From positions 1 through 15,556 of the forward strand of contig JBHHUM010000049.1 in the NCBI GenBank assembly GCA_046861645.1: 15,556 bases of DNA, in the 5' to 3' direction. The translations under genes were made by a program, and so were the position numbers. The stretch is from Fidelibacterota bacterium. GTDB taxonomy: Bacteria > Fidelibacterota > Marinisomatia > Marinisomatales > UBA2128. Position 1 is the stretch's first letter. Each line of letters opens with the position of its first letter. Under the pieces are notes generated by a model. It saw nothing but the letters and a program-made list of their open reading frames with translations. It was not told the DNA's origin and did no database searches. Positions 750-9,695 of this stretch are shown in pieces.

Positions 750-1037
750 ATGACCTATATTATCTGTGAACCTTGTGTGGGTGTCTGTGATACGGCCTGT
801 GTTGATGTCTGTCCTGTGGACTGTATTCATCCCACCAAGGATGAATGGGATGAGAAAGGGTACGATGAAGATAATCTGGAAGGGAAGCAGCTCTATATTG
901 ATCCAGAAGAATGTATTGATTGTGGAGCATGTGAACCAGAGTGCCCGGTTGAAGCCATCTTTGAGGAAAGTGAAGTTCCAGAAGAGTGGGATTCATTTAT
1001 TGACAAGAACTATACCTACTACGGACAATCCCGCTAA
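750..1037 (+). CDS. fdxA: Dicluster ferredoxin (7Fe FdxA-like, [3Fe-4S]/[4Fe-4S] or 2x[4Fe-4S])
   Basis: Motifs CVGVCDTACVDVCPVDC and CIDCGACEPECPVEAIF; very acidic; strong RBS AGGAGG at 739-744. Confidence 0.93.
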   Translation: MTYIICEPCVGVCDTACVDVCPVDCIHPTKDEWDEKGYDEDNLEGKQLYIDPEECIDCGACEPECPVEAIFEESEVPEEWDSFIDKNYTYYGQSR

Positions 1038-1060
1038 GTAGCAGGCAACATTAGGATATC

Positions 1061-1097
1061 GAGCGGTTGTTCTGATGAGCAACCGCTCTTTATGTTT
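1061..1097 (+). terminator. Rho-independent terminator after the ferredoxin gene
   Basis: GAGCGGTTGTTC-TGAT-GAGCAACCGCTC forms a 12-bp stem (one G:U) with a 4-nt loop, followed by TTTATGTTT. Confidence 0.8.
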
Positions 1098-1113
1098 GGA
1101 TGGATAAATATTT

Positions 1114-2262
1114 ATGACCAGTGAAGAAATAAAAGATTTATTGAAAGAAGTGAAATATCCCGGTTTCAGTCGCGATATTGTTTCCTTTGGGATTATTAAG
1201 GATATTCGCACTCTGGGAGATAAAGTGGAAATAGATCTCCAGATTACCTCTCCCAGCGAAGAGACAAGATCGGCGATCAAGTCCGGAGTGGAAAAAGTGC
1301 TGCTTGAGAAAGGTGGATTTGCTTCCGTAGAAGTGTCAATGAGGGGTGGGACTTCAAGTACTCAACGGCAGATGCCTGCGGGGAGTCCTCCTCCGACCAT
1401 TGCCCTGCCGGATATCAAATATACCATAGCTGTAGCCAGTGGGAAGGGAGGAGTAGGTAAATCCACTGTGGCAGTTAATCTTGCTGTGGGTCTGGCACTT
1501 GCCGGCAACCGCGTGGGGCTGCTTGATCTGGATATCTATGGGCCCAGTCTTCCGATTTTGATGGGTTTGAACGAACGCCCTAATATGACTGAACAACGGA
1601 AATTAGTCCCTTTGCAAAAACATGGAATTAAACTGATGTCATTTGGTTTTCTCAGTGGTAACGAAACCCCTGTAATCTGGCGGGGTCCCATGGTAGCCAG
1701 AATGACAGAACAATTCTTCACAGATGTGGAGTGGGGTGAACTGGATTACCTGATAATGGACTTGCCCCCAGGGACCGGTGATATTCAACTTACCCTGACT
1801 CAACGCCTACAACTCGCAGGGGCTATCATCGTTACTACTCCTCAGGATTTAGCTGTATCTGATGTACGCAAAGGGGCGGATATGTTTGGTAAGGTTAATA
1901 CACCGGTATTGGGAGTCGTAGAGAATATGTCCGGATATGTGCTTAACGGAGTGGTACGTGATGTTGCTGGTCAGCCAATGGGAAATGTTTCCCTTTCAAT
2001 TCCTGGAAAGAACGGTTCTTCAACTGTAAAAACAGCTGCTGATGGACAGTTTAGCTTGGAGGTAGATCTCTTTAAACGTGGGGGGGGATTGGCGGAAAGC
2101 AGTCGTTTGGATGTCCCTTTACTTGGTGAAATTCCAATTTCCCTCGAACTGATGGTATCGTGTGATGAAGGTGTTCCACTGGTGCTTAAAAATCCTGATT
2201 CACCTGCTGGTAAAGTTTTTAAACATATGGTGGCTAAAGTGGAAGATGTATTATCTGGCTGA
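1114..2262 (+). CDS. apbC: Mrp/ApbC (NBP35 family) P-loop ATPase, Fe-S cluster carrier, with an N-terminal DUF59/FeS_assembly_P-like domain; atypical, lacks CxxC
   Basis: Deviant Walker A GKGGVGKST, DLDIYGPS, WRGPM, DLPPGTGD, TTPQ and GVVENMS; N-terminal VKYPGFSRDIVSFG domain. Confidence 0.93.
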   Translation: MTSEEIKDLLKEVKYPGFSRDIVSFGIIKDIRTLGDKVEIDLQITSPSEETRSAIKSGVEKVLLEKGGFASVEVSMRGGTSSTQRQMPAGSPPPTIALPDIKYTIAVASGKGGVGKSTVAVNLAVGLALAGNRVGLLDLDIYGPSLPILMGLNERPNMTEQRKLVPLQKHGIKLMSFGFLSGNETPVIWRGPMVARMTEQFFTDVEWGELDYLIMDLPPGTGDIQLTLTQRLQLAGAIIVTTPQDLAVSDVRKGADMFGKVNTPVLGVVENMSGYVLNGVVRDVAGQPMGNVSLSIPGKNGSSTVKTAADGQFSLEVDLFKRGGGLAESSRLDVPLLGEIPISLELMVSCDEGVPLVLKNPDSPAGKVFKHMVAKVEDVLSG

Positions 2263-2278
2263 TCTTACTTTTTTGTAA

Positions 2279-3061
2279 ATGCTCCTGACAACCATTTCAA
2301 TACTTACCTTTAATTTATTTGGTGCCATGTTTCCCCTGTTATTCTGGTCGGTTAACATGCAACCATTGAATCAGGGGTTTCATCGCTTTATTCTCGGTTT
2401 GAGCAGTATCATAAGTGGGGTAGGGGTCATATTTGTCTGGTCGATGGTCAACTCGATCAGTATGAATGTTCGTATTGGAACATTAGTCTGGTTAATCTCC
2501 CTGTTAGCAGTAACTATATTTTATTGGCATCGACAGAGGATTCACAAGTGGGTGATTACCATTCCTTCACTATTAGGTATCCTGGCTTTTTATAGAGTGT
2601 TGAACGATATGATTTCAGGTGATATTGAACTGTTTGGGGTTTCTTTGCTGGGAGGACTCATTCTCTGCAGCGCTCTATTTGCCATGATATTAGGGCATTG
2701 GTATCTCAATGTAGTTTCCCTGCCTATCAGTCTGTTAAAGTCATCGGTTAAGTTTCTACTGTTGGTTGTAATAGTAAGGATTCTCTGGGATACGGGGTTT
2801 ATTTTTATGGGGAAAGTCCTCTATAATGGTATGCCCCTGTCTATGTCACAATTTATGCGGACATTTGATGGGTTTTTCCTTTTTTTTGCTCTTTTCTTTG
2901 GGACTCTTTTGCCTCTGGTACTTGGGATATTAACCCTTAAGACCATAGCCATTCAGTCGACACAATCTGCTACAGGTCTGCTGTATGTTATCGTTATTGC
3001 TGTGGTTATGGCGGATTTGTTTTACAAGTATTATCTGGTGCAGGTAGAGTTGCCCTTGTAA
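2279..3061 (+). CDS. Uncharacterised polytopic membrane protein (about 8 TM), motifs AMILGHWYL and TQSATGLLY
   Basis: 260-aa ORF with about 8 hydrophobic segments; 16 bp after apbC and 1 bp before the next gene. Confidence 0.8.
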   Translation: MLLTTISILTFNLFGAMFPLLFWSVNMQPLNQGFHRFILGLSSIISGVGVIFVWSMVNSISMNVRIGTLVWLISLLAVTIFYWHRQRIHKWVITIPSLLGILAFYRVLNDMISGDIELFGVSLLGGLILCSALFAMILGHWYLNVVSLPISLLKSSVKFLLLVVIVRILWDTGFIFMGKVLYNGMPLSMSQFMRTFDGFFLFFALFFGTLLPLVLGILTLKTIAIQSTQSATGLLYVIVIAVVMADLFYKYYLVQVELPL

Positions 3062-3062
3062 A

Positions 3063-3473
3063 ATGTCTATTTCAGTTGGGAAGGAATGTAGCCAGTGTGG
3101 TCACTATTATCACTTAATCAGAGAAGCGGAAAATGTAGTAAAATGTCCTCACTGTGGTGACGAGACAACAATTGATGTTGGTTTTACTGAGAAGTTAAAG
3201 GGATGTCCATTTTGTCATAGCAGGCAGTTTTATAAACGTAAGGATTTCAACCAGGTTTTAGGGTGTAGTATCGTAATTATTGGCGCTGTTCTGGTTCCTT
3301 TCACCTACGGTTTAAGCCTGCCGATTCTGATCATAATCGATTGGATACTCTATCATCGTTTTCCAGACGTGGTGGTTTGCTATCGATGTGGCGCTGAGTA
3401 TTACGGGTTGGTTCACATTCCAGAGCACATTGAGGGATTCGATCATCATATAGGGGAATTGTACGAGAAATGA
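3063..3473 (+). CDS. Small membrane-anchored protein with four CxxC motifs (zinc-ribbon / metal-binding)
   Basis: C9xxC12, C28xxC31, C48xxC51, a hydrophobic stretch at about aa 65-97, C106xxC109 and C-terminal FDHH. Confidence 0.82.
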   Translation: MSISVGKECSQCGHYYHLIREAENVVKCPHCGDETTIDVGFTEKLKGCPFCHSRQFYKRKDFNQVLGCSIVIIGAVLVPFTYGLSLPILIIIDWILYHRFPDVVVCYRCGAEYYGLVHIPEHIEGFDHHIGELYEK

Positions 3474-3501: not shown

Positions 3502-3530
3502 TTGACAATCGTGAATTCGGCACTTAATTT
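3502..3530 (+). promoter_or_regulatory. Sigma70-type promoter for the uppS-rseP operon
   Basis: Perfect -35 TTGACA (3502-3507), 17-bp spacer, -10 TAATTT (3525-3530), in the 79-bp gap before uppS. Confidence 0.65.
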
Positions 3531-7291: not shown

Positions 7292-8314
7292 TTGTCAACT
7301 CTCCGTGAACTGGCCTCTCTAGTAAATGGTGAGGTAGTAGGTGATCCTGATGTAGAAATTACCGGGGTAGCTGAAATCCAGGCCGCAAAGCAAGGTTCCA
7401 TCACCTTTCTTTTACACAAAAAATATCATTCTTATCTCGAGTCAACCGATGCTTCCGCAGTGGTAGTAGATCAAGAAGAAACCATGGGAAATACTAATTT
7501 GTTAAGAGTGGATAATCCCCATCTGGCCTTTGTTAAACTTTTGGCACATTTTGCACCTCCAGTTCCTTATGAGGGCGGGGTGCATCCAACTGCTGTCATA
7601 GACCCCTCGGCTAAGATTGGTGATAGCGTTTCTATTGGACCATTTTCCGTCATTTCGCCAGATAGTGTGATAGGTTCTAATGTCATCTTGGGAGCCCATG
7701 TAGTTGTGGAAGAGAAAGCAGTAATCGGTGCTGGTTCACAGATTGATAACGGGGTGATAGTAGGTCGTGAGTGTCAATTAGGTTGTAAAGTTATAGTTCA
7801 AAGTGGATCAGTCATTGGTTCTTATGGATTTGGTTATGTCACTGAAAAGGATGTTCATCTCAGGGTTCCACAGCTTGGACGTGTCTTAATAGGTGACGAA
7901 GTTGAGATCGGTGCTAATTGTACCATTGATCGGGGGACGATAAGTGATACCGTCATTGGCAAGGGCACGAAACTCGATAATCTGGTTCATATTGCTCACA
8001 ACGTACGCATCGGTAAAGGATGTTTGATTACCGCCCATGTGGCGATAGCCGGCAGCACAGTTATCGGAGATTATGTAGCATTCGGAGGTCAGTCCGGTGC
8101 GGTGGATCATGTCGTGATTGGTGATCGAGCTCAAATTGCCTCCCGAGGAGGGATCACAAAATCTGTTCCCGGGGGGAAAATCTATTCGGGGATGCCTGCA
8201 CGAGAAGCCCGAGAGCAAAATAAAATTGATGCCTACTTGCACCGTCTCCCAGAATTAATGAAGAGAATACGAGAGTTGGAACGGGAAGTGGAGAAAGCAA
8301 AAAGAAAAGAATGA
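7292..8314 (+). CDS. lpxD: UDP-3-O-acylglucosamine N-acyltransferase
   Basis: N-terminal uridine-binding domain, hexapeptide repeats, GFGY, PQLG, EIGANCTIDRG and KLDNLVHIAHNV; TTG start. Confidence 0.97.
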   Translation: MSTLRELASLVNGEVVGDPDVEITGVAEIQAAKQGSITFLLHKKYHSYLESTDASAVVVDQEETMGNTNLLRVDNPHLAFVKLLAHFAPPVPYEGGVHPTAVIDPSAKIGDSVSIGPFSVISPDSVIGSNVILGAHVVVEEKAVIGAGSQIDNGVIVGRECQLGCKVIVQSGSVIGSYGFGYVTEKDVHLRVPQLGRVLIGDEVEIGANCTIDRGTISDTVIGKGTKLDNLVHIAHNVRIGKGCLITAHVAIAGSTVIGDYVAFGGQSGAVDHVVIGDRAQIASRGGITKSVPGGKIYSGMPAREAREQNKIDAYLHRLPELMKRIRELEREVEKAKRKE

Positions 8315-9246
8315 ATATCAAACAGCAGACTATTGCTTCCTCCATAAGCTGTTCTGGTGTTGGGCTTCATACGGGTCTGAAGTGCAAACTCACTTTTCGC
8401 CCTGCTTTGGAAAACAGCGGGGTGAATTTTGTTCGAACTGATTTAAAGAATGAATCAGCTATTCCGGCTGATGTCGCGCATGTCGTGGATACTGCACGTG
8501 GTACCACCCTATCCCGGAAGGGAGTAATAGTCCGGACAATAGAGCATGTATTGGCTGCTTTGGCAGGTCTTCAAATTGATAATGTTACCATAGAACTTAC
8601 TGCAGAAGAACCGCCTATAATGGATGGAAGTGCCCTCCCCTTTGTGAAGCTTATACTTGAGGCTGGTGTCACCGTACAGGCTGCAGACAGAGAGCTGTTA
8701 GAAGTTGACCGGCAAGTAGTGGTAGAGGATACTGATCATGGCAATAGAATTGAAATCAAACCGTATCGGGAGTTTCGTATCAACGGAAGCCTTGAGTATA
8801 ACGAAGGTATTCTCGCTCCCCAGACAGTATTATTAGAACGAATTGAAGATTTTTCTGAGGAGATTGCACCTGCCCGTACTTTCGGTTTTCTCAGTGAATT
8901 AAAGGAATTGAGGAGAGCCGGACTTGCACAAGGGGGCAGCCTTGAGAATGCGGTAATTTTTGTAGATAGATCAATCAATGACCAGCAACGCAATGAACTG
9001 GCGGAGATGTTCGGTGAAGATGAAGAAAATTTAATCGGAAGTAATGGTATTTTGAACCTTGGTGGACTGAGATTCCCTGATGAACCAGTTCGGCATAAAG
9101 TGCTCGATCTTGTAGGAGACTTGATGCTTTTGGGAAGCCCGATACGGGGGGAGATCACAGCTCAAAAGATGAGTCATGCCCTGAATGTTGAGTTTGTGAA
9201 GAAATTGAGGCAGGAATACCCGCAGAAAAAGGAGGCAATAGCGTGA
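8311..9246 (+). CDS. lpxC: UDP-3-O-acyl-N-acetylglucosamine deacetylase
   Basis: Motifs QQTI, GVGLHTG, TIEH, PIMDGSA, IAPARTF, GGSLENA, RHKVLDLVGDL and HALN; ATGA overlap with lpxD. Confidence 0.96.
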   Translation: MNIKQQTIASSISCSGVGLHTGLKCKLTFRPALENSGVNFVRTDLKNESAIPADVAHVVDTARGTTLSRKGVIVRTIEHVLAALAGLQIDNVTIELTAEEPPIMDGSALPFVKLILEAGVTVQAADRELLEVDRQVVVEDTDHGNRIEIKPYREFRINGSLEYNEGILAPQTVLLERIEDFSEEIAPARTFGFLSELKELRRAGLAQGGSLENAVIFVDRSINDQQRNELAEMFGEDEENLIGSNGILNLGGLRFPDEPVRHKVLDLVGDLMLLGSPIRGEITAQKMSHALNVEFVKKLRQEYPQKKEAIA

Positions 9247-9695
9247 AAGAAAAGGTATCCTACGGAATTAACCAGATCATGGATATTATGGCTCATCGAT
9301 ATCCGATTTTACTATTAGACAGAATTGTGGAGATCGAACCAGGTAAAACCGTCATCGCCATTAAGAATGTCACTGCCAATGAGCCCTACTTCCAGGGGCA
9401 TTTCCCCAATAGACCAGTTATGCCGGGTGTTCTTATCGTAGAAGCTATGGCTCAGGCGGGAGGCTTTTTGATCCTCAATACCGTAGACGATCCTCTATCG
9501 AAGAATATGTTTTTTGCCTCCATTGAAAGAGCCCGTTTTCGGAAACCGGTTATTCCTGGTGACCAACTTAGAATGGAGCTTAATCTGGTGAAGTACCGAC
9601 TGAATACCTGTAAGATCACTGGAGTAGCGTATGTTGATGGTGAAGTGGTAACGGAGATAGCTTACACCGCTTCCATAGTACCGCGGGAGGTTTGA
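9243..9695 (+). CDS. fabZ: 3-hydroxyacyl-ACP dehydratase
   Basis: Motifs HRYPILLLDR, KNVTANEPYFQGHFP and PGVLIVEAMAQ; RBS GGAGG at 9231-9235 and GTGA overlap with lpxC. Confidence 0.96.
   Translation: MKEKVSYGINQIMDIMAHRYPILLLDRIVEIEPGKTVIAIKNVTANEPYFQGHFPNRPVMPGVLIVEAMAQAGGFLILNTVDDPLSKNMFFASIERARFRKPVIPGDQLRMELNLVKYRLNTCKITGVAYVDGEVVTEIAYTASIVPREV

Follow-up and report, generated by a model that had tools for sequence, protein, structure and literature searches.

The window analysed here, the whole 15,556-nucleotide stretch of contig JBHHUM010000049.1 from a Fidelibacterota bacterium, contains two adjacent genes for membrane proteins: one with a GHWYL motif (the GHWYL protein) and a small cysteine-rich protein (its partner). 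Comparison with relatives shows that the real unit is these two genes (the pair) rather than a block with the upstream gene for an Mrp/ApbC-family ATPase (apbC). The pair is proposed, at a probability of roughly one half, to be an accessory, cytoplasm-facing assembly module for an octahaem b6-type Rieske/cytochrome b complex. An earlier note, made from the sequence alone, had grouped both genes with apbC and a ferredoxin gene (fdx) as a membrane-associated iron-sulphur (Fe-S) or metal module. The open reading frames and translations bore out its description of the four genes, the gaps of 16 bp (apbC to GHWYL gene) and 1 bp (GHWYL gene to partner), and the motifs (an ApbC without CxxC, GHWYL, and four CxxC with FDHH). 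Its view that neither membrane protein can be assigned to a characterised family also held, with no convincing Pfam or NCBIfam match for either. The two membrane proteins are indeed tightly coupled, and the handling of an iron cofactor for a membrane enzyme is still the likeliest role, but a functional unit with ApbC is not supported.

A genome scan with a 46-sequence GHWYL alignment confirmed at least 561 relatives among at least 599 candidate stretches, and the best 80 loci were kept (the close loci); the family comprises about 1,500 clusters at 50% identity. The Cys-rich gene lies directly 3' of the GHWYL gene in 79 of the 80 close loci, and the 80th stops at a contig edge. Adjacency to apbC across genomes, as the earlier note expected, was not the rule. 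Respiratory genes accompany the pair in 48 close loci, where it typically has the octahaem cytochrome gene on one side and the oxidase genes on the other, and 30 have the order fdx-apbC-pair-uppS (Marinisomatota where titled; three are cut at one end). The two contexts are never combined (0/80), and the two loci in neither context come from genomes that hold an ortholog of subunit IV of the complex elsewhere. No apbC occurs within 7 kb in 50 of the 80, and among 80 distant metagenome loci a single one is beside apbC; in these distant loci the partner is the next gene in 30 of the 61 with room for it (at least 450 bp). Placement of the pair behind apbC is a gene arrangement of Marinisomatota.

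The respiratory loci come from Omnitrophota, Planctomycetales, Spirochaetia, Poribacteria, and Calditrichaceae records. In full form they read HEAT repeat, Rieske, short cytochrome b, subunit IV, octahaem cytochrome c, pair, CarboxypepD_reg protein, cox1, cox3, cox4, and cox2. The source genome has an operon of this kind on contig C67 (HEAT-Rieske-cytochrome b6-like-subunit IV-octahaem cytochrome c-CarboxypepD_reg-Rrf2-cox1-cox3-cox4-cox2-CtaA/CtaB; region L081, 2103-16422), in which the pair's slot is empty: the octahaem gene ends at 8604 and the next gene starts at 8675 (70 bp). A second cluster of Rieske, short cytochrome b, subunit IV, and multihaem genes is present on contig C165 (L082), and its cytochrome b is without the cysteine of the CxGG motif discussed below. 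Gene order also varies in other genomes. The Rieske gene is 3' of the octahaem cytochrome gene, and not 5' of cytochrome b, in L229, L230, L231, and L236; four further regions have no Rieske gene nearby; and a homologue of the operon's opening HEAT-repeat gene comes after the pair in L147, L152, L167, L169, and L177. A quick tree (92 rows, its careful search unfinished) did not place the apbC-linked rows in one group and gave the respiratory group a support of 33, and it did not resolve a direction for the pair's move between contexts. Apparent fusions of 350-420 residues in six GC-rich loci were rejected, as the upstream extensions are in another frame.

The association with the complex also holds where the genes are not neighbours. 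Four phylum samples totalling 514 genomes were compared: 151 Marinisomatota, 131 around G151 (Omnitrophota), 81 around G153 (Calditrichaceae), and 151 around G152 (Spirochaetia). The subunit IV ortholog served as the marker of the complex, with a cut of E <1e-100 in Marinisomatota that excluded two hits at 1e-11; five weaker hits were excluded in the Omnitrophota sample. By this marker, the bc core of the C67-type operon was found in 76 of the 514 genomes, in four phyla. The complex is carried, often unlinked, by 36 of the 39 genomes with an intact GHWYL gene (32 of 35 without the four centre genomes, which were picked for having that gene), and 435 of the 438 genomes without a subunit IV ortholog are also without an intact GHWYL gene. 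In Marinisomatota, one set of 16 genomes has both the intact GHWYL gene and the partner, and 14 of these have the ortholog, itself present in 24. The corresponding figures are 5 of 6 GHWYL genomes in the Omnitrophota sample (ortholog in 31/131), 16 of 16 in the Calditrichaceae sample (20/81), and 1 of 1 in the Spirochaetia sample (1/151). The one exception in the Omnitrophota sample, G261, does have a cytochrome b ortholog at 72% and an octahaem fragment, both at contig ends. Fisher values for this co-occurrence overstate it, because the centres were chosen for the gene and kin are not independent.

In the Calditrichaceae sample, the genes are on different contigs in 15 of the 16 genomes, with the GHWYL gene, the partner, and the bc operon at three separate places. 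The unlinked partner was found there in all five GHWYL genomes tested and in three of four bc genomes without a GHWYL match, and was absent from the single genome lacking both. Strict tracking of the pair with the oxidase was rejected, since several cox-bearing operons are without it. Three Marinisomatota without the complex have a decayed GHWYL copy on a long branch and no partner. These copies have lost L138, G139, Y142, T228, G233, and Y236, although one shows His at aligned position 140. All three (L099, L100, and L101) are full-length, have open frames, and still stand behind apbC, and they possibly keep a residual role.

The AlphaFold model of the GHWYL protein (pLDDT 96) predicts eight long helices in two four-helix bundles. 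Its fold matches in VIA-align cover nearly the whole chain (CydA, Z 17.7; ActC, 16.1; ActF, 15.4; and PsrC, 13.8), against a helical-bundle background of about 13, and a structure atlas gave a TM of 0.83 to a cluster in which 31% carry a DmsC label. Family library searches gave no NCBIfam match and one sub-threshold Pfam match, a PDB sequence search with the GHWYL profile gave no match, and no Foldseek match to the model reached the E 0.001 threshold (the nearest, ActF, was at 5e-3). Lys plus Arg counts are 1.8-2.4 in loops 1-2, 3-4, 5-6, and 7-8 and 0.4-1.1 in the others, and an N-out topology is therefore predicted. L138, G139, H140, L143, Q229, T232, G233, and Y236 are invariant in 86 of 86 sequences; this patch, comprising His140 and the TQSATG segment, is predicted to sit where helices 5 and 8 end on the cytoplasmic side. 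In the same predicted topology, R167, D/E246, and K/R250 fall within helices 6 and 8, in the half that faces the periplasm. Position 246 is D/E in 84 of 86 sequences and position 250 is K/R in 72 of 86, as placed by alignment and not by coordinates against Arg395 of ActC; NrfD-like subunits have a mid-membrane Arg/Lys gate in helix 8. The periplasmic halves of helices 1-4 have no polar position that is at least 70% conserved among the 86 sequences.

In the partner, C48, C51, D93, C106, Y107, and C109 are invariant in 86 of 86 sequences, giving a layout of C48xxC51, a hydrophobic hairpin with D93, and C106-Y-x-C109, with a median spacer of 54 between C51 and C106. The first two CxxC, N-terminal and zinc-ribbon-like, are missing in several members, and the alignments suggest that they are dispensable. 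Family libraries gave only short zinc-ribbon matches and the PDB profile search likewise weak ones, and the structure atlas led to LITAF-like clusters (0.84). A complex prediction of the GHWYL protein, the partner, and two Zn scored 0.10 against a mark of 0.32, with controls that were not folded, and so speaks neither for nor against an interaction.

A possible target is indicated by the short cytochrome b. CxGG occurs in the ortholog in 26 close loci where the pattern is readable, in 31 of the 32 operon regions that were fetched (all but the C165 paralog of the source genome), and in 8 of 8 further regions. Its cysteine binds haem c_n, and insertion occurs from the n side (Dibrova 2017, PMC5600118); section 11 of that paper states that the insertion system outside cyanobacteria 'remains a mystery'. 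A search that was positive in a Synechococcus control detected neither CCB1 nor CCB2/4 in the source genome. The cytoplasmic His/aromatic patch, the Cys-rich cytoplasmic partner, and the co-inheritance with the complex fit an assembly module that hands over haem c_n. In such a mechanism, H140, together with the neighbouring Trp/Tyr, would keep haem at the membrane surface on the cytoplasmic side, and the partner, which a zinc-closed hairpin would anchor there, would dock apo-cytochrome b or keep the apo-cytochrome reduced. The pair would pass haem c_n on to the cysteine of CxGG in cytochrome b, and proton movement would fall to the buried R167, D/E246, and K/R250. Should the pair be an assembly module, the chance that haem c_n is the cofactor handed over is about even. 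The fully specified version, in which the pair is the first candidate for a non-cyanobacterial haem c_n attachment machinery and consists of an NrfD-fold, cytoplasm-facing haem chaperone or lyase with a LITAF-like zinc protein that travels with b6-type Rieske/cytochrome b complexes in several phyla, is tentative and less likely than not.

Several observations weigh against an assembly role. No GHWYL gene was found in 40 of the 76 ortholog-bearing genomes (10 Marinisomatota, and 26 and 4 in other samples), so the pair would be accessory and not obligatory, and CxGG is kept in those complex-bearing genomes without the pair that were read. Two genomes, G099 (from the source genus, 97% complete) and G127 (95%), have an intact pair and no ortholog of subunit IV, the octahaem cytochrome, or cytochrome b, and are either true exceptions or assembly gaps. 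Since kin are not independent, a given sample may represent no more than one or two gains, and the co-occurrence could reflect a common aerobic lifestyle. Distant homologues adjoin many unrelated genes, with Fe-S genes oftener than haem genes, and the fold of the GHWYL protein alone indicates no function.

The neighbours of distant members are diverse and include Fe-S genes, ccmE/ccmF, a gene for a Lon substrate-binding domain standing alone, and ordinary housekeeping genes. In L122, L138, and most of 12 loci of Calditrichota type, ccmE/ccmF are located 2-4 genes downstream, a point in favour of the assembly role. An Fe-S-related gene is within three genes in 25 of the 71 distant loci with neighbours (NadA 10, MqnC-like radical SAM 10, IscA 9, Rieske ferredoxin 4, and Rrf2 3), or in 37 of 71 when superoxide dismutase and Fur-rubrerythrin are included. 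These counts, together with the apbC and ferredoxin neighbours in Marinisomatota and an endonuclease III-type gene in L198 and L199, could point to a membrane-tethered station where iron or Fe-S clusters would be delivered or repaired, both for the Rieske protein ahead of its export by the Tat system and for other Fe-S enzymes of aerobes, with Cys pairs that would bind Fe and not Zn. However, the counts are raw, with no background rate, and reflect a handful of repeated contexts, in which the IscA gene frequently lies on the other strand. Contig C34 of the genome encodes a separate SUF-type set (SufB/D with an A-type carrier and a NifU-type scaffold), the N-terminal Cys pairs of the partner are not universal, and the pair tracks one respiratory complex, whereas Fe-S proteins occur in all genomes. 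A delivery or repair station is unlikely.

It is also rather doubtful that the pair forms structural subunits of a bc-aa3 supercomplex, in which the GHWYL protein would be ActF-like, quinone-free, and possibly proton-conducting. Two of the best fold matches are ActF and ActC, the pair is located between complex III and complex IV genes, and R167, D/E246, and K/R250 are where NrfD-like subunits have a half-channel (PMC8076601). Against a structural role, the pair is unlinked to the operon in Marinisomatota and, within the Calditrichaceae sample, in 15 of 16 GHWYL genomes, where the GHWYL and partner genes are also apart from each other, and many oxidase-bearing operons are without the pair.

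Still less probable is a membrane-protein quality-control adaptor that passes misassembled respiratory subunits to proteases. The gene for a stand-alone Lon substrate-binding domain is found in 6 of the 71 distant loci, in L200, and in most of L237-L244 (the last by sequence likeness), and trypsin-PDZ and M17 aminopeptidase genes also recur as neighbours. However, such neighbours are absent from the maps of all 80 close loci, and the invariant His/aromatic patch would better suit a cofactor site. Independent of any such role, the Lon-type gene recurs beside the partner or the pair in L237-L244, L119, L126, L131, L145, L161, L193, and L200, and its product is a possible third component.

The ApbC of the window, which the earlier note had placed at the centre of the module, retains the family signs (deviant Walker A, Walker B, ENMS, and an N-terminal DUF59-type domain). 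It scores 265 bits with the NCBIfam ApbC model, under the cut-off of 348, and its top Foldseek match is the ApbC structure 8ZKC. It has no CxxC and a single Cys in the whole protein, and its gene is the sole Mrp-type gene found in this genome. In Mrp/ApbC/Nbp35 proteins, CxxC is established as the ligand of the bridging cluster (PMC6345978, PMC8593673). Between ENMS and the conserved F-x-x-G-G, the window protein has 44 residues in the alignment versus 11 in a CxxC-type ortholog. This insert has a weak match to positions 2-43 of 82 of PF13620 CarboxypepD_reg (E 2e-4, below cut-off), and AlphaFold predicts strands in and near it at residues 265-280, 293-298, 301-306, and 312-317. CxxC-less Mrp proteins exist in Bacillus and actinobacteria. 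The insert, which resembles half a beta sandwich and stands in place of the CxxC hairpin, spans the order of the source genome, including small genomes of 0.8-1.1 Mb (L083-L093 and L099-L102), and several ApbC orthologs are without any Cys. Two inserts might pair across the ApbC dimer and substitute for the bridging cluster. A marine bacterial order appears to keep only Cys-poor ApbC; this would suggest a function for Mrp that involves no bridging cluster.

The missing CxxC does not coincide with the pair. CxxC is missing in 27 of the 29 readable ApbCs of the 30 apbC-linked close loci and present in two. Among 20 phylum apbC regions, which were hand-chosen and non-random, a CxxC-less ApbC occurs without the pair in 11 (ten, L084-L093, continue straight to uppS and one stops at a contig edge), with a decayed GHWYL copy in three, and with the intact pair in one, and a CxxC-positive ApbC occurs with the pair in two and without it in three (L095, L096, and L098). 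Over all regions, the pair stands beside a CxxC-positive ApbC in L066/L094 (the same genome), L067, and L097, and a CxxC-less ApbC without the pair is also found in G140. Since all four combinations occur, the supply of ligands in trans by the pair is not supported, and the proposed tracking of the pair with CxxC loss fails; the loss follows lineage, independent of the pair. A model in which the CxxC-less ApbC works with both membrane proteins, which would give it cluster ligands in trans, draws on the tight spacing, the 27 CxxC-less linked proteins, and the predicted cytoplasmic side of the conserved faces, which would make contact possible, but it is already largely refuted by gene distribution (ApbC in 140 of the 151 Marinisomatota genomes and an intact pair in 16, in addition to the close loci without a nearby apbC) and is very improbable.

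The features of the window that bear on these genes are listed below.

Table. Features in and around the pair (positions in the window)
Feature	Position	Strand	Basis
Ferredoxin, FdxA-like, two-cluster, 95 aa	750..1037	+	Pfam Fer4 and NCBIfam FdxA matches
Hairpin resembling an intrinsic terminator, 12 pairs followed by a T-rich tail, in the fdx-apbC spacer	1061..1088	+	Sequence scan
Mrp/ApbC-family P-loop ATPase, 382 aa, N-terminal FeS_assembly_P (DUF59-type) domain, CxxC-less	1114..2262	+	PF10609 E 3e-90, PF01883 E 7e-10
Beta-rich insert in ApbC, 44 residues (residues 274-317), replacing 11-residue CxxC hairpin	1933..2064	+	Alignment; AlphaFold
GHWYL protein, 260 aa, eight predicted transmembrane helices	2279..3061	+	AlphaFold, fold matches, conservation
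Cys-rich partner, 136 aa, four CxxC and FDHH, LITAF-like layout	3063..3473	+	Alignments, structure-atlas lead
Possible sigma70 promoter of uppS (unverified)	3502..3530	+	Read from sequence; not called by scan

The remaining gaps are 76 bp (fdx to apbC) and 79 bp (partner to uppS), and the translations give the order uppS, bamA, skp, lpxD, lpxC, fabZ, and lpxA 3' of the partner. The order fdx-apbC is seen in Marinisomatota both with and without the pair, and fdx is a conserved neighbour in Marinisomatota only. Those homologues that have names are Marinimicrobia/Fidelibacterota, which puts the window in Marinisomatota. A motif related to the hairpin between fdx and apbC was found in 24 of 28 fdx-apbC spacers of relatives, so fdx is probably a separately terminated transcript. 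The stem sequence is nearly unchanged across genera, beyond expectation for a plain terminator, and the hairpin may be a regulatory element. For the uppS promoter claimed in the earlier note, TTGACA at 3502-3507 is a perfect -35, but the -10 candidate 17 nt on (TAATTT) has just 3/6 matches, and for this reason it was not called by the promoter scan, which gave 10 promoter-like sites in the window versus 9.8 in shuffled sequence; the promoter is plausible but unverified. At 8311-9695 of the window, lpxC and fabZ are separate, and several relatives (L008, L017, and L043) have a single protein of about 469 residues there. A plasmid comparison found no match.

No description of the pair was found in the literature searched, which does not include subscription papers or figure S1 of PMC5600118 (an operon figure in which the genes may be drawn); PMC5317091 covers another Rieske/cytochrome b locus and is not relevant to the pair. 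Attachment of haem c_n in bacteria without CCB is treated as an unresolved question in PMC5600118, and the pair provides a two-gene candidate for it. Candidate residues can be named (H140, Q229, Y236, R167, and D246 in the GHWYL protein; C48/C51/C106/C109 and D93 in the partner), and operons with and without the pair, as well as decayed copies, are natural controls. Even if the cofactor differs, the GHWYL protein would be a case of the NrfD fold employed outside an NrfD-type complex, and its bacterial partner would be LITAF-like.

Among known systems, subunits of the NrfD-like type (NrfD, PsrC, DmsC, ActC, and ActF; PF03916, PF04976) resemble the GHWYL protein in their eight helices in two four-helix bundles (Z 13.8-16.1), in the predicted N-out topology, as in PsrC, and in a basic residue late in helix 8, and one of 58 distant GHWYL members matches DmsC (E 2e-7). 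However, their quinone site (His/Asp/Tyr, with a Ser in helix 2) is on the periplasmic side, in helices 1-4 (PMC8076601), a region where the GHWYL protein is without a conserved polar residue, its invariant patch being cytoplasmic instead. The GHWYL protein also differs in having a Cys-rich hairpin protein as its partner, and no NrfC-type four-cluster Fe-S or molybdoenzyme subunit was seen among the annotated recurring neighbour families of the pair, a set that excludes singletons. CydA of cytochrome bd is the highest fold match (rmsd 3.6 over 251 residues), but identity is 11-12%, the GHWYL protein is shorter at 260 residues and has one invariant His at the cytoplasmic end of helix 5, and no cydB partner was seen. 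The window ApbC is like the Mrp/ApbC/Nbp35 carriers (Salmonella ApbC, Cfd1, and 8ZKC) in its Walker motifs, ENMS, and DUF59-type domain, and differs where their bridging CxxC is replaced by the beta insert.

The partner resembles LITAF/CDIP1 (PF10601) in its two Cys knuckles around a hydrophobic stretch, with both ends predicted to be cytoplasmic; LITAF is a zinc-stabilised monotopic protein (PMC5095921). None of the 86 partner members matches the PF10601 profile at E 0.001, the stretch is 22 residues in LITAF versus about 34 with a Pro-Gly turn in the partner, and the partner is bacterial and has an extra N-terminal zinc ribbon. The CCB system (System IV; CCB1-4 of cyanobacteria and chloroplasts) comprises four genes versus the pair's two, the pair is not obligatory, and no CCB Pfam match was found in the 58 and 86 members of the two pair families. 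Nevertheless, the pair would share with this system both its membrane side and its target, a short cytochrome b with CxGG (PMC5600118).

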